Shown: positions 1,199 through 61,927, counted from the stretch's first letter. The stretch: 64,000 nt of DNA from Bryobacteraceae bacterium (GCA_965246775.1 CBDFFL010000005.1:30947-94946), one strand, 5' to 3'. The notes: generated by a model from the sequence alone, not told the origin. Numbers and translations are program-made.

Positions 1199-3108
1199 TT
1201 TTAAATTCGAAGATTCCGGCGGTTCCGGTGGAGCAGGCTTGGGACGACGCGCGCTTCAACATGAAGCTGGTGAACCCGGCGAACAAGCGGAAATATTCGG
1301 TGCTGGTTGTGGGGTCGGGCCTGGCGGGAGCGTCGGCCGCGGCTTCCATGGGCGAACTGGGGTACCAGGTGAAGTGCTTCTGCTTCCAGGGCAGCCCGCG
1401 GCGCGCGCATAGTATTGCCGCGCAGGGTGGCATCAATGCGGCCAAGAATTATCAGAACGATGGCGACAGCATCTATCGCCTGTTTTACGACACCGTGAAG
1501 GGCGGCGATTTTCGCGCGCGCGAAGCGAATGTTTACAGGCTGGCGCAGAACAGCGTCAGCATCATCGATCAGTGCGTGGCGCAGGGTGTGCCATTTGCGC
1601 GTGAATATGGTGGCACGCTTTCGAACCGGTCGTTCGGTGGCGCGCAGGTTTCGCGTACGTTTTATGCACGCGGCCAGACGGGGCAGCAGCTCTTGCTGGG
1701 CGCCTATCAAGCGCTGGAGCGGCAGGTTCATGCGGGCGCGGTGGACATGATTCCGTACAGCGAAATGCTGGACCTGGTTGTGGTGGACGGACGCGCGCGC
1801 GGCATTGTGACGCGGGATTTGCTGACGGGCAAGATTGAATCGCATGCGGCAGATGTGGTGGTGCTGGCGACCGGCGGCTACGGCAATGTGTACTATCTTT
1901 CGACGAACGCAAAGGGGTCGAATGCGACGGCGATCTGGCGGGCGCACAAACGCGGCGCGCTGTTTGCGAACCCCTGCTTTACGCAGATTCATCCGACGTG
2001 CATTCCGGTTTCGAGCGAGTATCAATCGAAGCTGACGCTGATGAGCGAATCCCTGCGCAACGATGGGCGGATTTGGGTGCCGAAGAATAAGGGCGAGAAG
2101 CGGTCGCCCGATCAGATTCCGGAAGCTGAGCGCGATTATTATCTGGAACGCCGCTACCCGAGTTTCGGCAACCTGGTGCCGCGCGATGTTGCCAGCCGCA
2201 ACGCGAAGACGGTGTGCGATGAAGGGCGCGGGGTGGGTCCGGGCGGCTTGGGCGTGTATCTGGATTTTTCAGAATCCATCAACCGGCTGGGGCGGCACAC
2301 CATTGAAGAGCGCTATGGAAATTTGTTCGATATGTATGAGCGCATCACGGGTGAAGATCCGTATCGCGTGCCGATGCGTATCTATCCGGCGATTCACTAC
2401 ACCATGGGCGGCTTGTGGGTGGATTACGAGTTGATGACCACGATTCCGGGGCTGTTTGCGCTCGGTGAGGCGAATTTTTCAGACCATGGCGCGAACCGTT
2501 TGGGAGCCAGTGCGTTGATGCAGGGTTTGAGCGATGGCTACTTCATTGCGCCTTATACGATTGGCAATTATCTGGCGAGTAACAAGCTGGAGAAGGTGAC
2601 GGCGGAGCATCCGGAATTTGTGAAGGTGCGCGCGGAAGTGGCGGGTACGGTCGAGAAGATGCTCGCGATTAACGGCAACCGGACTACGGCTTCCTTTCAC
2701 AAAGAGCTGGGCAAAATTGTTTGGGATGAGTGCGGCATGTCGCGCAGCGCGGCGGGTTTGCGGAGTGCGATTGAGCGGATTCGCGCGCTTCGGGAGGAGT
2801 TCTGGCGCAGCGTGAAAGTGGCGGGCGAGGCGGACGATTTAAATCCGTCGATTGAGGCCGCGGGCCGGGTGGCGGATTATTTTGAACTGGCGGAGCTGAT
2901 GTGCATCGATGCGCTGGCGCGCAATGAGAGTTGCGGTGGGCATTTTCGCGAGGAGTATCAAACGCCGGAGAATGAGGCGCTGCGTAATGACGAAGATTAC
3001 TCGTATGTGGCGGCTTGGGGCTATGGCGGCGCGGGCGGAGAGCCGGAATTGGTGAAAGAGCCGCTGACCTTTGAACGCGTGCATCCTTCGCAACGGAGCT
3101 ATAAGTAA
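1195..3108 (+). CDS. sdhA: succinate dehydrogenase / fumarate reductase flavoprotein subunit
   Basis: ORF 865..3108. The conserved part starts near GTG 1195, overlapping the sdhC stop. It has the FAD-binding motif [14 protein letters not shown], plus [12 protein letters not shown] and HYTMGG motifs. The 865-1194 extension overlaps sdhC in another frame and is not coding. Confidence 0.9.
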
Positions 3109-3909
3109 ATGAACCTGACTCTGCATGTATGGCGGCAGCGCCGCTCGACGGAGAAGGGGAAGATGGTCCGTTATGAGGCGAAGGATCTGAGCCCGGACAT
3201 GTCTTTCCTGGAAATGTTGGACGTGGTGAACGAAGGGCTGATCCTGAAAGGGGAAGAGCCGATTTCGTTCGAGCACGATTGCCGCGAGGGCATTTGCGGG
3301 TCTTGCGGTTTCATGATCAATGGCGTGGCGCATGGGCCGGTGCAGGGGACGGCGGTTTGCCAGTTGCACATGCGGCATTACAAAGATGGCGATGTGCTGT
3401 ATCTGGAGCCGTTTCGCGCGCGCGCGTTTCCGGTGCTGAAAGATTTAGCGGTAGACCGGCGGTCGTTCGACAGGATTATTGCGGCGGGCGGATATATTTC
3501 GGTGCCCACGGGTAGCGCGCCGGATGGCAATGCGATTCCGGTGCCGAAGGATCGGTCGGACCGTTCGATGGATGCGGCGGCGTGCATTGGGTGTGGAGCT
3601 TGTGTGGCGGCGTGTCCGAACGCTTCGGCGGCGCTGTTCACGGGCGCCAAGATCACTCATCTGGGGCTGCTGCCGCAGGGACAAGCCGAGCGGCAGCATC
3701 GCGCGATGAAGATGGTGGAGCAGGGCAATCAGGAATTGTTCGGAAGCTGTACCAACATCGGCGAGTGCGAGGCGGTGTGTCCGAAAGAGATTCGGATTGA
3801 AGTGATAGCGGTGATGAATCGCGATTACTTGTTGGGTGCCTGGAAGAGCCGGGAAAGCTATCGGGACGATGTTCCGGCTGAGCTGCCGAGGGCCGGGGGA
3901 AAGACGTAG
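3109..3909 (+). CDS. sdhB: succinate dehydrogenase iron-sulfur subunit
   Basis: The ATG immediately follows the sdhA stop. Cys clusters [22 protein letters not shown] and [12 protein letters not shown] are typical of the 2Fe-2S / 4Fe-4S / 3Fe-4S subunit. Confidence 0.9.
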
Positions 3910-3919
3910 CCCAAGTTGC

Positions 3920-3949
3920 AGACTTACATTACCGTGGTAATGTAAGTCT
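3920..3949. promoter_or_regulatory. perfect 14-bp inverted repeat (AGACTTACATTACC-gt-GGTAATGTAAGTCT) abutting the vapB start codon
   Basis: Read directly from the sequence. The arms are 3920-3933 and 3936-3949, and the vapB ATG is at 3950. It is a candidate antitoxin operator and/or a hairpin closing the sdh transcript. No T-tract follows. Confidence 0.5.
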
Positions 3950-4213
3950 ATGGGTGCAGCGAAATCGAAGGTTACGGCACAGGGGCAGATTTCAGTTCCA
4001 GTGGCGGTGCGTAAAAAACTTGGTATCGGGCCCGGTTCCGTTCTGCAATGGTATGAAGACGATGGCCGAATGGTGGTACGGCGGGCTGGCAAATATACCT
4101 TTCAGGACATTCACAAGATATTGTTCCCGGCTGGGCCGCCGGCATATCGAACAGACGCGGATTTGAAAGAGGGCATCGCTCAACATATGCGCGAAAAGTA
4201 TGCCCGCCGTTGA
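3950..4213 (+). CDS. vapB: AbrB/MazE/SpoVT-family antitoxin (VapB-like)
   Basis: 87 aa with SKVTAQGQISVPVAVRKKLGIGPGSVLQW, a SpoVT-AbrB looped-hinge-helix signature. It overlaps the downstream PIN gene by 14 nt. Confidence 0.8.
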   Translation: MGAAKSKVTAQGQISVPVAVRKKLGIGPGSVLQWYEDDGRMVVRRAGKYTFQDIHKILFPAGPPAYRTDADLKEGIAQHMREKYARR

Positions 4214-19087: not shown

Positions 19088-19180
<93 letters not shown>

Positions 19181-19230
19181 ATTCTTGAGTAGCGTGGTGC
19201 GATACTATTGAGAGGTTAGCACAACGCCGC

Positions 19231-19307
19231 GCGCCCGTAGCTCAGCTGGATAGAGCGTTTGCCTCCGAAGCAAAAGGTCACAAGTTCGAATCTTGTCGGG
19301 CGCACCA
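19231..19307 (+). tRNA. tRNA-Arg (anticodon CCG), CCA encoded
   Basis: GCGCCCGTAGCTCAGCTGGATAGAGCGTTTGCCTCCGAAGCAAAAGGTCACAAGTTCGAATCTTGTCGGGCGCACCA. It folds as a cloverleaf with anticodon loop CTCCGAA. Confidence 0.9.
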
Positions 19308-35400: not shown

Positions 35401-36453
35401 ATGGCTAGGTATCCACGCATGAAACATACAGCAGCCCTCCTCACCCTGGCCTTCTCCGTCGCGGCCTTCGCCCAACTGCCGCCCAACGCGCCCCCAGCCG
35501 CTCCCGCCGGACGTGGCACGCCACCCCCCATGCCCCCCGGCCCCAGCCCCAATTCGCAATACCGGCTCGGCCCCGATTCGCTCGCCCAGGAAGGCGTCCC
35601 CAAAGGTGAAATCCGCGGCCCCTTCACCCTCCCCAGCCAGGTCTACCCCGGCACCCAGCACACCTATTGGGTCTACGTTCCCGCCCAGTACGACGCCGCC
35701 ATTCCCGCCGCGCTCATGATCTTTCAGGATGGCCAGGCCTTCAAAGACGAAAGCGGCGATATTCGCGCCCAGAACGTAATGGACAATCTCATTTACCGCC
35801 GCGAAATCCCCGTCATGCTCGGCGTCTTCATCAACCCCGGCCGCACCCCCGAACAGCCCGAGCCCACTCTCTCCGAATGGGGCGACCGCACCACCAACCG
35901 ACCCACCGAATACAACACGCCCGACGACAAATACGCCCGCATCGTTACCGAAGAGCTGATGCCCGCCCTGAACAAGGATTACAACATCTCAAAGGACCCC
36001 GAAATGCACGGCATCGGCGGTTCCAGCTCCGGCGCCATCGCGGCATTTTCCGTCGCCTGGGAGCGCCCTAACCAGTTCCGCAAAGTGCTCAGCAACGTGG
36101 GCAGCTTTGTCGATCTCCGCGGCGGTCACGTCTATCCCGAACGCGTGCTCGCCACCGAAAAGAAGCCCATCCGCATCTTCCTCTGCGACGGACGCAACGA
36201 CAATCGCGGCATTCGCAACGGCGTCTACGATCAGAAGCGCGATTGGTTCTACCAAAACGTGCGCCTCATGAAGGCCCTTACTCAAAAGGGTTACGACGTG
36301 AACTACTCATGGGGCGTCAACCTGCATGGCCAGAAATTCGGCGGCGCCATCATGCCCGAAATGATGCGTTGGCTCTGGCGCGATTCCCCCGCCTCCACCG
36401 ACCCGAACGACATGGTAGAACGCGGCTTCCGCCAACCGGCTAAGAAGACCTAG
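35401..36453 (+). CDS. secreted esterase (PF00756-like 'putative esterase' / enterochelin-esterase-like alpha/beta hydrolase)
   Basis: Signal peptide, Pro-rich linker, [10 protein letters not shown]...[11 protein letters not shown], and nucleophile elbow [13 protein letters not shown]. Confidence 0.75.
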
Positions 36454-39135: not shown

Positions 39136-40848
39136 ATGAGAATCGCCTCGCTGCTCCTGCTTGCCGCCCCCCTGCTGGCCCAACAGACTTACACACTCGG
39201 CCCGGATTCCCAACCCAAAGACGTGCCCCACGGCAAGACCACCAAGTACACCTTCACGCAATCCAAAATCTTCCCCGGCACCACGCGCGATTACTGGGTC
39301 TACATCCCCGCCCAATACAACCCTGCCACCCACGCGCCCCTCATGGTCTTCTTCGATGGCGGCGGCTTTGCCAATGAAACCGGCGGCTATCGCGTCCCCG
39401 TAGTCTTCGATAACCTCATCGCCGCCAAAGACATGCCGCCCACCGTCGCCGTCATGGTCAACCCCGGCGTGCTGCCCGCGCTCAACCCCACACAGCAGAA
39501 CCGTTACAACCGCGCTTACGAATACGATGCCCTCGGCGATCGCAATGCCCGCTTCCTTATCGATGAGCTATTGCCCGAAGTGCAAAAACTGGTCAACCTC
39601 AGCGCCGACCCCAATGACCGCGCCATCGGCGGCTCCAGTTCCGGAGGCATCGCCGCCTTCACCGCCGCCTGGAATCGCCCCGATTCTTTCCACCGCGTCC
39701 TCAGCTTCGTCGGCAGCTACACTGACCTTAAAGGCGGCGAAATCTACGACAGCCTCATCCGCAAAATGGAGCCCCTGCCCCTCCGCATCTTTCTCCAGGA
39801 CGGCGAGCGCGATCAAAGCATTTATTCCGGCAACTGGTATCTGGCGAACCAGTCTCTTTACTCCGCGCTCCAGTTCGCCGGCTATGAAGCGAACTTCGTC
39901 GTAGGCACAGAAGGCCACAATGGCAAGCACGGTGGAGCCATCCTGCCCGACGCGCTCCGCTGGCTCTGGAAAGGCTTTCCCGCGCCCATCGCGAAGTCTT
40001 ATTCAACAGCCGGCAACCGCCACTACATCAGTGAAATTCTCGATCCCGCCAGCGAGTGGAAAGAGGTCAGCCACGGCCATCAATTCACCGAAGGCCCCGC
40101 CACGGATAAAAATGGCGACCTCTATTTCGCCGATACGCGCGCCGGCATCTATCGCATTGGAGAAACCTTCCTCGCGCAAGCCCACCACACCAGCGGCCTC
40201 ATGTTCGGCCCCGATGGCAAGCTCTATGCCGCCGAGCAGGATGGCAAGCGCATTGTCGCCTACGACCCCCAAAACAGCGCCTCCGAAACCGTCATCACCG
40301 AAGGCATCGTCCCCAACGACCTCTGCGTCTCAAGCAAGGGCGATATCTATTTCACAGAGCCTTCCACCCACCGCGTCTATCACGTCCGCAACGGCAAGCG
40401 GACCATGGTCTACGAAGGCATCACCTTCCCGAACGGCGTTCGCCTGTCCCCCGATGAATCGCTGCTCGTCGTGGCCGATAGCCAAACCAGAACCGTCTGG
40501 TCGTTCCAGGTGCAGCCCGATGGCACGCTCGCGAACGGCCAGCCCTTCTACCGCCTCAACCTGCCCGATGAAGGCGCCATGCGAGCCAACGCCGACGGCA
40601 TGACCTTCGACGATCAAGGCTTCCTCTATGTGGCCACCAACACCGGCATCCAAATCTGCGACCAGCCCGGGCGTGTAGTCGCCATCATCGCGAAACCCAG
40701 CACCGCCACGCCCTCGAACGTCGCCATCGGAGGCCCCGGCATGCAAACCCTCTACGTCACTGCCGGCGACAAAGTCTTCGCCCGCCACCTGCGTAGAAAA
40801 GGTTTCCACCCCTGGCAGCCCGTCAAGCCGCCGATGCCGCAGTTATAA
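39136..40848 (+). CDS. fusion of a putative-esterase domain (paralogue of 35401..36453) with an SMP-30/gluconolactonase/LRE-like beta-propeller
   Basis: The N-terminal half has DYWVYIPAQYN...LMVFFDGGGF and IGGSSSGGIAAF. The C-terminal half has FTEGPATDKNGDLYFAD, PNDLCVSSKGDIYFTE, FPNGVRLSPDE and ADGMTFDDQGFLYVA, which are SMP-30-like repeats. Confidence 0.75.
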   Translation: MRIASLLLLAAPLLAQQTYTLGPDSQPKDVPHGKTTKYTFTQSKIFPGTTRDYWVYIPAQYNPATHAPLMVFFDGGGFANETGGYRVPVVFDNLIAAKDMPPTVAVMVNPGVLPALNPTQQNRYNRAYEYDALGDRNARFLIDELLPEVQKLVNLSADPNDRAIGGSSSGGIAAFTAAWNRPDSFHRVLSFVGSYTDLKGGEIYDSLIRKMEPLPLRIFLQDGERDQSIYSGNWYLANQSLYSALQFAGYEANFVVGTEGHNGKHGGAILPDALRWLWKGFPAPIAKSYSTAGNRHYISEILDPASEWKEVSHGHQFTEGPATDKNGDLYFADTRAGIYRIGETFLAQAHHTSGLMFGPDGKLYAAEQDGKRIVAYDPQNSASETVITEGIVPNDLCVSSKGDIYFTEPSTHRVYHVRNGKRTMVYEGITFPNGVRLSPDESLLVVADSQTRTVWSFQVQPDGTLANGQPFYRLNLPDEGAMRANADGMTFDDQGFLYVATNTGIQICDQPGRVVAIIAKPSTATPSNVAIGGPGMQTLYVTAGDKVFARHLRRKGFHPWQPVKPPMPQL

Positions 40849-41918: not shown

Positions 41919-41958
41919 TAGCTTGAAAGCCTGATCGCTCGAAAACTTAAGGACCTAC

Positions 41959-42489
41959 ATGCGAAACACTTCGTGCCTGCTTCTGCTGTTCACCGTTGCG
42001 CTCTCCGCGCAAACTCCGCCCTCTCCCTCCACCACGCTCAAGGTTGGCGATATGGCGCCAGATTTCATCCTTCCCGCCACCGACGGCAAAAAGGTCACCC
42101 TCTCTGAATTTCGCGGTAAGAAGAATGTTGTACTGGCATTCTTCCCCGCCGCTTTCACCGGTGGTTGAACTAAGGAAATGACGGCGTACCAGGCTGGTCA
42201 CGCTAAATTCGATGAAAGCGACACCGCTATGTTCGGTGTTAGTACAGATAACTCCCCGTCCCAGAAAGTTTTTGCCGAACAACTCAAGCTTACCTTCCCC
42301 CTCCTCAGCGATTTTGCCGATCGCAAAGTAGTCACCGATTACGGTATCCTCATCCCCAACCGCGGAATGGCCTACCGGGTGACTTTCGTCATCGATAAAG
42401 ACGGAAAAATCGACTACATGGAGAAGGATAAGTTGGATCCCGAAGGCTCCGGCGCCGCGTGCAGCCGCTTGGCGCACAAAAAGCAGTAA
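41959..42489 (+). CDS. secreted peroxiredoxin (AhpC/TSA-Bcp-like) with in-frame TGA at the peroxidatic-Cys position: candidate selenoprotein (alternatively a nonsense pseudogene)
   Basis: ORFs 41959..42168 and 42178..42489 are in the same frame, separated only by TGA 42166-42168. The joined product reads ...[17 protein letters not shown][TGA]TKEMTAYQ...[28 protein letters not shown]...[11 protein letters not shown]. The TGA falls where the Prx motif FxPxxFTxxCxxE has its catalytic Cys. Signal peptide at the N-terminus. Confidence 0.6.
42183..42204 (+). promoter_or_regulatory. candidate bacterial SECIS hairpin downstream of the in-frame UGA
   Basis: GGCGUACC-AGGCU-GGU(C)ACGCU forms 8 bp with one bulge and a 5-nt apical loop with G at its second position. 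The loop begins 22 nt after the UGA, within the commonly described spacing for bacterial SECIS elements. Confidence 0.4.
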
Positions 42490-42516
42490 GTCGCCCGTTC
42501 TCCACCGGCGGGCTAC

Positions 42517-43812
42517 TTACTTACCCACGTAAGTAACCCGCCAGATCGATTTAGACCCGTCATCTGTCACCATCAGCGATCCGTCCGCCGCCGTCGCCAC
42601 ACCCACCGGACGCCCCCACACATCGCCGCTCTCAGTCACGAAGCCGGTCAAAAAATCCTCATACTCCCCAGTCGCATGACCCTTCACCAGCGGCACCCGC
42701 ACCACTTCATACCCGGCCCGCACCGCCTTATTCCAGGAACCGTGCTCCGCCGCGAAAATATCCCCCGCATACTCCGCCGGAAATTGCTTCCCGTCATAAA
42801 AGGTCATCTGTAGCGAGGCATTGTGCGGCTGCAGCAAAACATCCGGCACAATCACATGTCCTTTCAACTCCGGCCGCGTGCCTTCCAGCCTCGGGTCCTG
42901 GTTGCTCCCCATGTAATACCACGGCCATCCATACACGCCGCCTTCCTGCACATGAGTAATATAATCGGGCACAAGATTGTCACCCAACATATCCCGCTCA
43001 TTCACCGAACACCATAACTCATTAGTAAGTGAGTTGATCGCAATCCCCACAGGATTCCGAATCCCCGAAGCATATACCTTTACGAACTTACCCTCTGGTG
43101 TATACTCCAGTATGTTCGCCCGCAACTTTTCCGTCGAATGCGTATCCGGGTCATCCACATTGGATCGCGAACCAACCGCCACAAAAAGACGCTTCCCATC
43201 TTGCGAAAAAACCACATCGCGAGTCGAATGTCCGCCTGTCGGAATATCTGGAACCACCACCTGCGGGCTGCCCGTTGCCTTCAAATCGCCATTTTTATAA
43301 GTCACCCGCACGACAGCGTTTGTGTTCCCGATGTAAATCCACTTCGGCTCCGGCCCCGGCGGATAAAACGCCATCCCGAACGGCCCCCGCAGCCCGCCGA
43401 TAAAAGTGGATGTCTGCTCCGGCTTGCCATCTTTTGTAATGCCCCGGAAAATCTTCAGTTCCCCGGAGTGTGTCTCCGCCACGAACAGATCCCCGTTCGG
43501 AGCCCGCTGAATTGCGCGCGGATAATTCAGCTTCTCCGCATAGCGCTCCACCTTGAACCCCGGCGGAGCCTTCGGCCACGCCTCAGCCGGTTTCGCCACC
43601 ACGGAAGGCCCGTTCGAAACGCCCTTCGTGGCAAATGGCTTTGGCAGCGCGTCGGCCGTAATCTTCCGGAACACCCCCGGCTGCACGCTGTGATAATCGG
43701 CAAACGCGCTCTCACCTGTCAGCACCTTGGCGTCGGTTTTCCCCGCCCCGGGGCTCAAGCCCGCCATCGAAATCGTAAGCCATACAAGCCGCATTCGCAT
43801 ATCGCTGTTCAC
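42517..43812 (-). CDS. PQQ-dependent sugar dehydrogenase (soluble glucose/sorbosone dehydrogenase family)
   Basis: 431 aa with a signal peptide. APNGDLFVAETHSGELKIF, GGHSTRDVVFSQDGKRLFV and GVYGWPWYY match the six-bladed sGDH-like propeller. Confidence 0.8.
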   Translation of the reverse strand: MNSDMRMRLVWLTISMAGLSPGAGKTDAKVLTGESAFADYHSVQPGVFRKITADALPKPFATKGVSNGPSVVAKPAEAWPKAPPGFKVERYAEKLNYPRAIQRAPNGDLFVAETHSGELKIFRGITKDGKPEQTSTFIGGLRGPFGMAFYPPGPEPKWIYIGNTNAVVRVTYKNGDLKATGSPQVVVPDIPTGGHSTRDVVFSQDGKRLFVAVGSRSNVDDPDTHSTEKLRANILEYTPEGKFVKVYASGIRNPVGIAINSLTNELWCSVNERDMLGDNLVPDYITHVQEGGVYGWPWYYMGSNQDPRLEGTRPELKGHVIVPDVLLQPHNASLQMTFYDGKQFPAEYAGDIFAAEHGSWNKAVRAGYEVVRVPLVKGHATGEYEDFLTGFVTESGDVWGRPVGVATAADGSLMVTDDGSKSIWRVTYVGK

Positions 43813-58546: not shown

Positions 58547-60117
58547 TGCTTCCACTCGCTCACCAGCCCCTGCGCCGCAAGCTTGCGCTGCAGCTCCGCC
58601 ACGTTCACATCCTGCACACCCATGTCTCCCCGAGAAGCCATCGCAGCCGCCACACCAGCGGCATGCCCCAAAATCATGTACTGCGGCTCCATCCGCAAAC
58701 TCGAGTAAGCGACGTGGCTCGCGGAGAAGCACACCGGCACCAACAGGTTCGTCGCATCTTCGCGCTTCGGCAGCATCACACGAAACGGAATCTGGTAAGG
58801 CGTCACCGCCACCTGCATATCGCCCTCGTTCTCCACCGCGCCATCCGCCGTCGCCAGGCGCTGTATATTGTGCGAGTCGCTGTTGTAACTCCCCATGCCA
58901 ATCGCGTCGGGCTTGCTCAACTCCGTCTGCAGATCCTTCTGCACCATCACATACTCGCCCACCATGCGCCTCGCCTCGCGCACATACAGCTGGTTCGGCC
59001 AGTGGTCCGTATCCTGAAACTCGTCCTTCGCCAGACCCCAGCCATTCACCTCGTTCCGCAACTCCTCCGGCACGCGCGCATCGTGCGCCAGAAACCAGAA
59101 GAAGCCTTTCGTGTAGTCTTCATGCTCCTTCCAAATGCGGGCGCGCGTGGCATAGCTGCCTTCCGGATACTCCCAATCCTTCCCGATGTAATCGGTCGAA
59201 AACGCGCCATTGTTGTTCGTGTCCGTCTTATGATTCGGAATCGCAAGCGGATTGCACAGATCCCCGAACCGCGGCCACTTGCCGGTCTTCTCTTTCGTCG
59301 CCTGAATCAATCGCGCCACCAACTCATAACGCTTGGCGTCATATCCCGCGGGCTTCGGAAACGCCACTTGATTCGCCGGGTCGTCCGTCAGAATCAGCCG
59401 AAAGTTGTAAGCCTGCACCTTCCGGTCCGCCGCTCCCACTTCGCCTTTCGTCGACGCCGCCGAAACCTCCGGCAACAGCTTGCCGTCACCGTCGAAAGGC
59501 GAAACACGAACCAGAAACTGATGCTTGGGAGTCCGATCCCTCACCCCCGCCAGCGATTCTCCATACTCCGCAATCCCTTCGCGACCCCACGTGTACCGCA
59601 CCTTCGCCTGCGCCATCAGGTCGCCCTCATAAGAGCAGTCCGCAAACACGCGGCCCTCATAAACCGACCCATCCTCCATCGTCACCGCCGCAACCCGCGC
59701 CCCGCTCTTCCGCACGCCGCCGCGCTCCGCCAAACGTTGCCGCTTCACCACTGTCACCTTCGCCTCCCGCAGCATTTCCTCCAGCACCTGCTCCCCCACA
59801 TGCGGCTCGAAATACCAGGCCACCTCCTGCCCATAGCGCCCCACATCGTAACGCTTCCCCAAGCGCCGGTAAAACTCCAGCGCCATCCCGCCAATCACTT
59901 CCCGCTTCCCCACATCGGTGCGCGAAAGCCCACCGGTAGTCATGCCGCCCAAGTGCGTGCCGGGTTCGAGCAGCACCACCCGCAACCCCTCCCGCGCGCC
60001 ACTCACCGCGGTCACCACACCCCCGGCCGTTCCGCCATACACCACCAGATCGAACCGCTGTGTAGCAGCGTGCAAGCCACCGGTCACAAGCATGAATACT
60101 AGAGCGAAGAAGCGCAT
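58543..60117 (-). CDS. secreted FAD-dependent oxidoreductase (FAD_oxidored / 'xanthan lyase-like' family)
   Basis: Signal peptide, then FDLVVYGGTAGGVVTAVSGAREGLRVVLLEPGTHLGGMTTGGL, a dinucleotide-binding GxGxxG-type motif. Confidence 0.75.
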   Translation of the reverse strand: MRFFALVFMLVTGGLHAATQRFDLVVYGGTAGGVVTAVSGAREGLRVVLLEPGTHLGGMTTGGLSRTDVGKREVIGGMALEFYRRLGKRYDVGRYGQEVAWYFEPHVGEQVLEEMLREAKVTVVKRQRLAERGGVRKSGARVAAVTMEDGSVYEGRVFADCSYEGDLMAQAKVRYTWGREGIAEYGESLAGVRDRTPKHQFLVRVSPFDGDGKLLPEVSAASTKGEVGAADRKVQAYNFRLILTDDPANQVAFPKPAGYDAKRYELVARLIQATKEKTGKWPRFGDLCNPLAIPNHKTDTNNNGAFSTDYIGKDWEYPEGSYATRARIWKEHEDYTKGFFWFLAHDARVPEELRNEVNGWGLAKDEFQDTDHWPNQLYVREARRMVGEYVMVQKDLQTELSKPDAIGMGSYNSDSHNIQRLATADGAVENEGDMQVAVTPYQIPFRVMLPKREDATNLLVPVCFSASHVAYSSLRMEPQYMILGHAAGVAAAMASRGDMGVQDVNVAELQRKLAAQGLVSEWKH

Positions 60118-60157
60118 TCACACAGTGTCTAACGAAGCGGTGCAGTACAGTAAAATC

Positions 60158-61927
60158 GTGAAGCTCACGCTTACCTTACTGCTCTGCGTTTCCGCTTATC
60201 CAGCCACCATCGAACAAGCCAAAAAGTTTGTCGAAGATACCGAACGCCAAGACCTCGTCCTTTCCACCGAGGCCCAGCGCGCCGATTGGGTGAAGAGCAA
60301 CTTCATCACCGACGATACCGAAGCCCTCGCCGCCAAAGCCGATGAGCGCGTCATCAACGCCGGTGTCGCCTGGGCCAAGGAAGCCGCGAAGTACAAAGGC
60401 ACTCCGCTCCCCGAAGATATCGAGCGCAAGATGCTGCTGCTCCGTAACGGCCTCACCATCGCCACGCCCGCCAATCCCAAAGAAAGCGAAGAGCTCACCC
60501 GCATCGTCGCGTCCATGGAAGGCACTTACGGCAAAGGCAAGTATTGCCCTCAACCCGATAAATGCCTCGATCTGGGCGACCTCGAAAAGATCCTCGCCGA
60601 GAGCCGCGATCCCAAGCAACTGCTCGACGCCTGGACCGGCTGGCACGCCATCGCAAAGCCCATTCGCGCTCCCTTCACGCAATATGTCTCGCTCGCCAAC
60701 AAAGGCGCGCGCGAGCTTGGCTTCAAAGACACGGGTGCCATGTGGCGGGAAAAATATGACATGACGCCCGATCAGTTCGCCTCTGAACTGGACCGGCTCT
60801 GGCTTCAAGTGAAGCCGCTATACTTATCGCTCCACACCTACACCCGCAAGAAGCTGCGTGAAAAATACGGCGCCGCTGTCGTACCTGCCGATGGTCCCAT
60901 CCCCGCGCATTTGCTCGGCAACATGTGGGCGCAAACCTGGGACAACATCTACCCATTGCTTGAACCGAAAGACGCCTCGCCCGGCTATGACCTGAGCGAA
61001 ATTCTAAAGAAGCGCAACACCGATGCCAAGCAGATGGCGCGCTATGGCGAAAGCTTCTTCACCTCGCTCGGCTTCGCACCGCTGCCGCCAACCTTTTGGG
61101 AGCGTTCTCTCTTCACCAAGCCGCGCGATCGCGATGTGGTCTGCCACGCCAGCGCCTGGGACATCGATTTCGAAAACGACTTGCGCATCAAAATGTGCAT
61201 CGAACCCACCGCCGAAGATTTCCTCACCGTCCATCACGAACTCGGTCACAACTTCTATCAGCGCGCCTACAACACGCAGCCATTCCTCTTCCGCGATAGC
61301 GCCAATGACGGCTTCCACGAAGCCATCGGCGATACCATCGCTCTCTCCGTCACACCCGAATATCTGGTGAAGATTGGCCTGCTCGATAAGGCTCCCGACG
61401 CCTCGCGCGACATCGGCCTGCTGCTTCGGAAGGCGCTCGAAAAAGTCGCGTTCCTACCCTTCGGCTTGATGATCGATAAGTATCGCTGGCAAGTCTTCAG
61501 CGGACAGATCCAACCCGAACATTACAACGAAGCCTGGTGGAAGCTGCGCCGCGAGTATCAAGGCATAGCGCCGCCCACCGCCCGCACGGAAGCCGATTTC
61601 GACGCCGCCGCCAAATATCACGTAGCCGCCAACGTGCCCTACGCGCGCTACTTCTTAGCCGACATCCTCCAGTTCCAATTCCACCGCTCGCTCTCCGAAG
61701 TAGCGGGCTGCAAAGAGCCGCTCAACCGCTGCTCCATCTATGGCAACGCCGAAGCCGGCAAGCGCCTGAACACCATGTTGGCGATGGGCGCCAGCCGTCC
61801 GTGGCAAGTCGCGCTACAGTCCCTCACCGGCACTAAGCAGATGGACGCCACCGCGATAGTCGATTACTTCGCCCCACTACAAAAGTGGCTCGACGAACAG
61901 AACAAAGGAGAGAAGGTGGGGTGGTAA
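60158..61927 (+). CDS. peptidase family M2 (angiotensin-converting-enzyme-like peptidyl-dipeptidase), secreted
   Basis: GTG 60158 gives the signal KLTLTLLLCVSAYPA. The zinc motif is HHELGHNFY followed by EAIGDTIALS (HExxH...E), and the length and other blocks are ACE-like. Confidence 0.8.
   Translation: MKLTLTLLLCVSAYPATIEQAKKFVEDTERQDLVLSTEAQRADWVKSNFITDDTEALAAKADERVINAGVAWAKEAAKYKGTPLPEDIERKMLLLRNGLTIATPANPKESEELTRIVASMEGTYGKGKYCPQPDKCLDLGDLEKILAESRDPKQLLDAWTGWHAIAKPIRAPFTQYVSLANKGARELGFKDTGAMWREKYDMTPDQFASELDRLWLQVKPLYLSLHTYTRKKLREKYGAAVVPADGPIPAHLLGNMWAQTWDNIYPLLEPKDASPGYDLSEILKKRNTDAKQMARYGESFFTSLGFAPLPPTFWERSLFTKPRDRDVVCHASAWDIDFENDLRIKMCIEPTAEDFLTVHHELGHNFYQRAYNTQPFLFRDSANDGFHEAIGDTIALSVTPEYLVKIGLLDKAPDASRDIGLLLRKALEKVAFLPFGLMIDKYRWQVFSGQIQPEHYNEAWWKLRREYQGIAPPTARTEADFDAAAKYHVAANVPYARYFLADILQFQFHRSLSEVAGCKEPLNRCSIYGNAEAGKRLNTMLAMGASRPWQVALQSLTGTKQMDATAIVDYFAPLQKWLDEQNKGEKVGW

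Follow-up and report, generated by a model that had tools for sequence, protein, structure and literature searches.

Selenocysteine in a probably exported peroxiredoxin? The UGA at the peroxidatic position of a Bryobacteraceae gene recorded as two fragments

Described selenocysteine peroxiredoxins and their relatives

Among the experimentally verified prokaryotic selenoproteins are peroxiredoxins (Prx; PF00578, motifs TxxU and PxxxTxxU; PMC13188914, a 2026 review), and by 2006 they were already one of the commonest bacterial selenoprotein families, with 12 members (PMC1794560), while the survey of Peng et al. 2016 has 91 of them in 78 organisms (PMC5029168). Those catalogued in 2006 are of Prx1 type, with FTFVU, or of BCP type, with TPGU or TSGU (PMC1794560). 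One that has been verified experimentally, PrxU of Eubacterium acidaminophilum, has selenocysteine (Sec) at the peroxidatic position and, to go by a title cited in PMC13188914, resides in the cytoplasm of a strict anaerobe. Export of a peroxiredoxin is also on record: PprX of Caulobacter crescentus is a BCP/PrxQ-like Prx of the cell envelope, with an N-terminal signal sequence of ~20 residues and a PxxxTxxC site, and its reducing power comes from ScsB/DsbD by way of a TlpA-type thioredoxin (Cho et al. 2012, PMC3322552).

How does the gene dealt with here compare? It lies in a 64-kb stretch of DNA from a Bryobacteraceae bacterium, called the window below, and we consider it very probable that it is a genuine selenoprotein gene, with the UGA at its codon 70 being decoded as Sec within a single 176-residue peroxiredoxin (Table 1). 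Like the catalogued Sec-Prx it has the PF00578 domain and PxxxTxxU, with Sec in the place of the peroxidatic Cys; Cys and Sec homologues exist as pairs, and the putative SECIS element is in the coding sequence just past the UGA. It differs from them in reading FTGGU, and the subfamily to which it belongs, found mainly in soil Acidobacteriota, has in addition a predicted N-terminal export signal and an invariant Cys near the C-terminus. With PprX, likened here by description, it has in common a Prx site and, by prediction, an N-terminal signal, though PprX uses Cys.

PrxU was invoked in the original prediction as a precedent, and for the chemistry, i.e., Sec at the peroxidatic position and presumably recycling of thioredoxin type, the precedent stands. 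Orthology does not: the NCBIfam model for PrxU (NF040737) gives 67.4 bits where its cut-off is 270, and the model has a length of 233, compared with the 176 residues of the window protein. The best NCBIfam model is that for BCP / thioredoxin-dependent thiol peroxidase (NF006960), at 81.7 bits and again below its cut-off, 140, so that the protein appears to be a relative of that family and not an equivalog. The closest solved structures are the archaeal BCP-like 2ywn (E=1.4e-28) and Mycobacterium tuberculosis AhpE (E=7e-26); taken with their companion entries (Rv2238c as 1xvw, 1xxu and 4x0x; archaeal 4g2e) the matches run from E=1e-25 to 1e-28. They are of similar size and have a similar active-site loop, ...AFTG-x-C in AhpE and ...AFTQVCTKEM in 2ywn, but they use Cys and are not exported, whereas the window protein would have Sec and has a predicted export signal. 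AhpE is moreover a 1-Cys enzyme, and the window subfamily has the invariant extra Cys168 near its C-terminus. By these comparisons the protein is tentatively placed in an AhpE/BCP-like subfamily characterized by the predicted export signal and by Cys168.

No description of an exported Sec-Prx in Acidobacteriota was found in the literature searched. It had been anticipated that a version with a signal peptide in this lineage would be notable, and this holds in part: the gene is mis-annotated, and neither the string FTGGU nor the FTGGU-TKEM subtype is present in the 2006 sequence file (PMC1794560). However, Sec-Prx, acidobacterial use of Sec and, in PprX, an exported peroxiredoxin were all known already. 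The principles of Sec decoding and of peroxiredoxin chemistry are left unchanged, and a selenoprotein specialist will not be surprised. What is gained is the correction of a systematic mis-annotation, in which a peroxiredoxin gene is stored as two adjacent fragments, and the addition to the bacterial selenoproteome of a well-supported subfamily that is abundant in soil metagenomes.

One frame, one domain and a recurrent UGA

Table 1. Features of the peroxiredoxin gene and their positions in the window
Feature	Position	Strand	Basis or remark
Shine-Dalgarno-like AAGGA (putative)	41949..41953	+	5 nt 5' of the ATG; predicted from sequence
Probable Sec-peroxiredoxin coding sequence	41959..42489	+	176 codons; UGA, probably Sec, is codon 70
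Predicted N-terminal export signal, residues 1-18	41959..42012	+	Hydropathy; cleavage site approximate
Catalytic Thr67 codon, PxxxTxxU motif	42157..42159	+	T67 in >=97% of 197 sequences
UGA codon 70, very probably read as selenocysteine; peroxidatic residue	42166..42168	+	Orthologue and structure alignment
bSECIS-type hairpin in coding sequence (candidate)	42183..42204	+	Fold, covariation, Sec-only occurrence
Conserved catalytic Arg140 codon	42376..42378	+	R in 196/197 sequences
C-terminal Cys168 codon (ACSRLAH), candidate resolving cysteine	42460..42462	+	C in 195/197 sequences
Stop codon TAA	42487-42489	+	End of the read-through peroxiredoxin frame

The starting observation was of two ORFs, 41959..42168 (69 aa) and 42178..42489 (103 aa), the second beginning at the Met of TKEM, which were said to be in one frame with a single TGA as their sole interruption and to yield, on read-through, a complete AhpC/TSA-type peroxiredoxin. 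Both statements are confirmed. The frame is continuous apart from the TGA, and the 176-residue product, with Cys entered at the TGA, matches Pfam AhpC-TSA (PF00578) with E=1.9e-38 and 131.6 bits (cut-off 26), its residues 29-153 corresponding to profile positions 1-123 of 124. As the profile is covered nearly end to end, the domain spans the TGA. Elsewhere in the 64-kb window the other same-frame ORF pairs split by TGA are only off-frame shadows of real genes.

In public records the exact N- and C-terminal fragments of three close orthologues (loci L001-L003, see below) are entered as two proteins, one of 69 aa and one of 103/104 aa, e.g., HCC55854.1 (69 aa) and HCC55853.1 (104 aa) from a Solibacterales MAG, and they are labelled either 'hypothetical protein' or 'peroxiredoxin'; the split arises because gene callers take the TGA as a stop. 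Could the fragments nonetheless be what the cell makes, a 69-residue exported peptide and a 103-residue protein started at the ATG at 42178, each functional in its own right? The ATG is there and both pieces have been called as genes in public data, but the Pfam domain joins them as one fold, the C-terminal piece would be devoid of both active site and export signal, and the ATG encodes the conserved Met of TKEM that is also found in the Cys forms. Two functional polypeptides are, in our judgement, scarcely credible, and a single read-through peroxiredoxin is the reading followed below.

The local sequence, FFPAAFTGG-[TGA]-TKEM, is that of a PxxxTxxC/U active site (motif as defined in PMC13188914), laid out as P63-AAF-T67-GG-U70. 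When aligned with solved peroxiredoxins, which read AFYPAAFTQVCTKEM in 2ywn (containing ...AFTQVCTKEM) and FFPLAFTGICQGE in M. tuberculosis AhpE (containing ...AFTGICQGE), the TGA falls in the column of their peroxidatic Cys, and alignment to Cys homologues agrees, just as had been proposed. T67, U/C70 and R140 each recur in no fewer than 97% of 197 sequences, Sec and Cys forms together.

Is the TGA a peculiarity of one genome? A scan of species-representative genomes gave 48 related loci, the closest of them in Bryobacterales, Bryobacteraceae and Terriglobia MAGs. Of 26 orthologues from acidobacterial genomes, 6, at 52-95% identity, share the active-site TGA and have no other break in the frame (L001 95%, L002 86%, L003 91%, L011 62%, L016 55%, L022 52%), and around 20 other acidobacterial orthologues have TGC or TGT at the codon. 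L001 and L003 have downstream genes in common with the window and so are true orthologous loci. A pattern scan of metagenomes for FT-x-G-TGA-TKEM found at least 120 contigs, nearly all with 103-116 open codons beyond the TGA. Synonymous changes after the TGA greatly exceed nonsynonymous ones, the ratios being 21:3 in comparison of the window with L001, 42:7 with L002 and 37:6 with L003, as expected if the part beyond the TGA is translated and under selection, and not if it is a defunct 3' relic. In these same comparisons purifying selection is evident on both sides of the TGA, and the nonsynonymous changes cluster in the region of the N-terminal signal.

These results bear on whether the gene is simply decaying, a chance nonsense mutation having struck the catalytic Cys codon. 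Only one base separates TGC from TGA, gene callers and public records alike give two fragments, and the machinery for Sec was not found in the 64-kb window. Against this, the same TGA is in orthologues as distant as 52% identity and in the at least 120 contigs with no second lesion, selection beyond it is strongly purifying, and a conserved and covarying structured element, described in the next section, is found only in genes that bear it. A pseudogene is accordingly very improbable. The original prediction had considered a random nonsense mutation at exactly this codon unlikely, and had named additional disabling mutations in close relatives as a sign that would speak for a pseudogene; the recurrence supports the former, and the close relatives carry no such mutations. 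An error of sequencing or assembly, with TGC or TGT as the true codon, would likewise need only a single-base difference, but the same TGA has been assembled independently in many projects, and the synonymous codons that form the hairpin go with TGA and not with TGC or TGT; we give such an error next to no credence.

With selenocysteine remaining the preferred meaning of the codon, a rough neighbour-joining tree was made from 97 Sec-type and 134 Cys-type sequences. Sec and Cys forms are intermingled on it, parsimony requiring at least 13 switches, and the window clade has Cys forms of ~74% identity as its nearest relatives. For the Prx selenoprotein family 5 Cys-to-Sec conversion events were inferred by Zhang et al. 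2006 (Table 1 there; PMC1794560), and the interleaving seen here matches those conversions.

In three loci (L016, L022 and L094) a Sec-type gene stands in tandem with a Cys-type paralogue of the same peroxiredoxin. In L022 (2902-4079) the two are 30 nt apart, and in L016 the Cys-type site is at ~2650 and the Sec-type at 3184. Such tandems could be pairs in which a selenium-dependent primary enzyme has a backup. Within the window there is no Cys paralogue of the peroxiredoxin.

The hairpin 3' of the UGA

A hairpin at 42183-42204, of 8 bp with one bulge and with the loop AGGCU starting 22 nt after the UGA, had been pointed out as having the general geometry of bacterial SECIS (bSECIS) elements. 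Folding bears it out. In the fuller description 42183-42191 pairs with 42195-42204 to form 9 bp with C42199 bulged and an apical loop of GGC (42192-42194); the outer pairs are G42183-U42204, G42184-C42203, C42185-G42202, G42186-C42201 and U42187-A42200, and the inner ones A42188-U42198, C42189-G42197, C42190-G42196 and the closing A42191-U42195, which when left open gives the 8 bp and AGGCU of the alternative description. The published criteria for bSECIS elements (PMC13188914) (Fig. 2 there) are a loop of 3-9 nt on an upper stem of 4-16 bp, a loop that has a G in its first two positions (typically N1-G-[G|U]-N-N2), a spacing of 16-37 nt between UGA and loop, and an MFE <= -7.5 kcal/mol. The window hairpin agrees with all four, its loop being 3 or 5 nt (GGC or A-GGC-U) with G first, its stem 9 bp with the one bulge, its spacing 22-23 nt and its MFE -9.6 kcal/mol over a 42-nt segment. 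The proposed geometry is thus upheld by these criteria, as it is by the covariation described below.

Taken alone, the 71-nt segment 42160-42230 folds no more stably than its shuffles (z = -0.54), and so the significance of the hairpin rests on comparative data. A hairpin is present in every TGA-bearing orthologue, with its 5' arm beginning ~18 nt past the UGA, while the stem varies by lineage: GCGUACC/GGUAUCGC, GCGUAUC/GAUAUCGC, GGAUACC/GGUAUCC and GCCUACC/GGUAUGGC. Covariation was assessed in 30 distinct short-hairpin sequences picked by their apical motif and related by descent. In these, 84.4% of the cells are paired, a share that falls to 23-53% on shifting the 3' partner by 1-3 columns, in a count where sequences without the bulge score as lower-stem mismatches. 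Five of the 9 pairs vary on both sides, and the covariation score is 0.194 compared with 0.074 for shuffles, with none of 500 shuffles reaching 0.194, though because of the selection by apical motif and of phylogenetic kinship these statistics are not true probabilities.

The Cys forms offer a further comparison. Folded locally, 115 Sec sequences have a median MFE of -11.2 kcal/mol, as compared with -7.9 for 22 Cys sequences (p=1.7e-10), and Cys-type orthologues are without the hairpin even where the encoded peptide is identical; in the Cys-type L010, for instance, AYQAGI is encoded with GCC GGC and not with GCU GGU. Third codon positions tell a similar tale. Between the window and L001, L002 and L003, respectively, 0, 1 and 0 of the 8 such sites inside the hairpin have changed, in contrast to 21-44% of those elsewhere after the TGA, and the sole change within the hairpin converts a closing G·U pair to G-C. 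Natural Sec/Cys pairs with a hairpin confined to the TGA-bearing members provide clean data on how a SECIS element originates within coding sequence.

The hairpin core has no meaningful recurrence elsewhere in the window. Rfam gave no match to SECIS or another relevant family, either for the whole window at the gathering threshold or for 42100-42300 at E<=10, a blank to be expected since bacterial SECIS elements are diverse (PMC13188914).

Some TGA orthologues have longer stems, CUUCCAG...CUGGAAG (the metagenome loci L097, L108 and L112 are examples) or CCGGGAC...GUCCCGG (L098 and L163, likewise from metagenomes). These long forms have either a loop of 13-15 nt, which is more than the 3-9 nt that the standard bSECIS model allows, or a nested mini-stem, with energies of -15 to -27 kcal/mol, and appear to be alternative SECIS architectures inside one protein family.

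Decoding, export and the wider setting

What of the components that would have to act on such an element? No tRNA-Sec is found in the 64-kb window, where the only tRNAs are tRNA-Ser and tRNA-Arg, and no SelA, SelB or SelD domain among 30 of its ORFs scanned with Pfam. Nor was tRNA-Sec found in 60 related loci, stretches too short to be informative on the point. The lineage, however, is a different matter. Acidobacteria are known users of Sec, with 3 selenoprotein families and 4 selenoproteins (PMC1794560), and for Solibacter usitatus SelA, SelB and two Sec-containing FdhA are listed (Zhang et al. 2006, PMC1794560). Ca. Solibacter usitatus is in the order Bryobacterales, as is the window's organism. 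With the core of its SelB as probe, thousands of homologues are retrieved; the best 120 are 67-90% identical, and several of these, from Ca. Solibacter and from Bryobacteraceae MAGs, bear the name selenocysteine-specific elongation factor. There is thus good evidence, at the level of the lineage, for the Sec trait in Bryobacterales.

SelB gene calls in Solibacter and Bryobacteraceae are often short, at 354-521 aa, even on megabase contigs. Canonical SelB has roughly 614-630 aa. Some of the short calls (e.g., L169:10001-11566) have no Pfam match for the C-terminal winged-helix domains that bind SECIS. Domain IV may be divergent or shortened in them, or the genes may have been split in calling.

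Might the UGA then stand for one of the standard amino acids, Trp or Cys, through a near-cognate or suppressor tRNA or a reassigned code, or else be read as Sec or Cys facultatively according to selenium supply? The evidence for Sec machinery is that of the lineage, which leaves some room for this, and 5 of 120 'Cys-form' database proteins (P0001-P0120) are given with Trp at position 70, presumably through translation with another code; most likely these entries are TGA genes translated with a TGA=Trp code and so are hidden selenoprotein genes. But TGA terminates 7 of the 25 confident genes in the window, from which the code is the standard one, and position 70 is redox-active, where only Cys or Sec works. 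Simple read-through, besides, needs no conserved SelB-type hairpin at canonical spacing, and SelB is common in Bryobacterales. Reading as a standard amino acid, or facultatively, is thus very improbable, and decoding as Sec is the reading on which what follows is built.

As to export, the original prediction called the protein secreted, with a signal peptide. A hydrophobic signal-like segment is indeed present, with a maximum 10-residue Kyte-Doolittle hydropathy of 2.96, and it is followed by a linker rich in Pro, Ser and Thr; 'secreted', however, is better replaced by exported to the cell envelope or periplasm, which is the likely destination. An N-terminal extension of at least 15 residues is found in 167 of 197 homologues, with a mean maximum hydropathy of 2.5, and across them its hydrophobic character is conserved though its sequence is not. 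The window protein's signal, with a single Arg, resembles one for the Sec pathway. The signals of the two L022 paralogues (2902-3168 and 3525-4079) have the twin-arginine-like E-RR-SFFL and N-RR-TVWQ, and an RR-type motif is found in 9 of the 167 extended homologues, and hence the subfamily may use both export routes. A lipoprotein was also considered and rejected, Cys6 not being conserved and being placed before the hydrophobic core.

The sequence of events that we envisage draws on the established bacterial mechanism. During translation the hairpin in the mRNA would act as a bacterial SECIS element, recruiting SelB·GTP·Sec-tRNA(Sec) with the UGA in the A site, and Sec70 would be inserted in place of termination. 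The N-terminal signal would then send the protein to the cell envelope or periplasm, where Sec70, activated by Thr67 and Arg140, would reduce H2O2 or organic hydroperoxides and itself become a selenenic acid. Cys168 is probably the resolving residue, forming a selenenylsulfide with Sec70, and a thioredoxin-fold reductase of the envelope, possibly in a TlpA/DsbD-type pathway, may reduce this in turn. Genes for ScsB, DsbD or TlpA are not among the scanned neighbours of the peroxiredoxin gene.

How general might this be? The findings suggest use of selenium for peroxide defence outside the cytoplasm in Acidobacteriota, a very abundant soil phylum. A bolder proposal, which we advance tentatively and hold to be somewhat doubtful as a whole, is that a Sec-peroxiredoxin exported to the envelope, of a distinct AhpE/BCP-like subfamily with a Sec70-Cys168 redox pair, many Sec/Cys switches and some Sec/Cys tandems, is in wide use among the dominant soil Acidobacteriota (Bryobacterales, Solibacteraceae and relatives). 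Were it so, peroxide defence outside the cytoplasm would, in a major soil phylum, be adjusted directly by selenium supply, and enzymes of this kind would be missed systematically in present annotations.

The neighbours of the peroxiredoxin gene encode a cupin, a PQQ-type glucose/sorbosone dehydrogenase-like protein, an esterase-gluconolactonase fusion, an amidase and histidine kinases. Directly 3' of its stop codon is an inverted repeat, GCCCG...CGGGC (42493-42513), which sits between it and the convergent gene for the glucose/sorbosone dehydrogenase (GSDH)-like protein (42517-43812, minus strand) and which, since it is without a T-run, was not flagged by a terminator scan. The fusion (39136-40848, plus strand) bears a signal peptide and joins a putative esterase to an SMP-30/gluconolactonase (SGL) beta-propeller; near it, at 35401-36453 on the same strand, is a second, stand-alone esterase. 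The two tRNA genes of the window, tRNA-Ser(GCU) on the minus strand and tRNA-Arg(CCG) on the plus strand, are divergent and 50 nt apart (19088-19307). Towards the other end of the window a 669-aa ORF (59918-61927, plus strand) matches the full profile of Peptidase_M2, the angiotensin-converting enzyme (ACE) family, with E=7e-229, and on this match it is classed as a bacterial ACE-like metallopeptidase.
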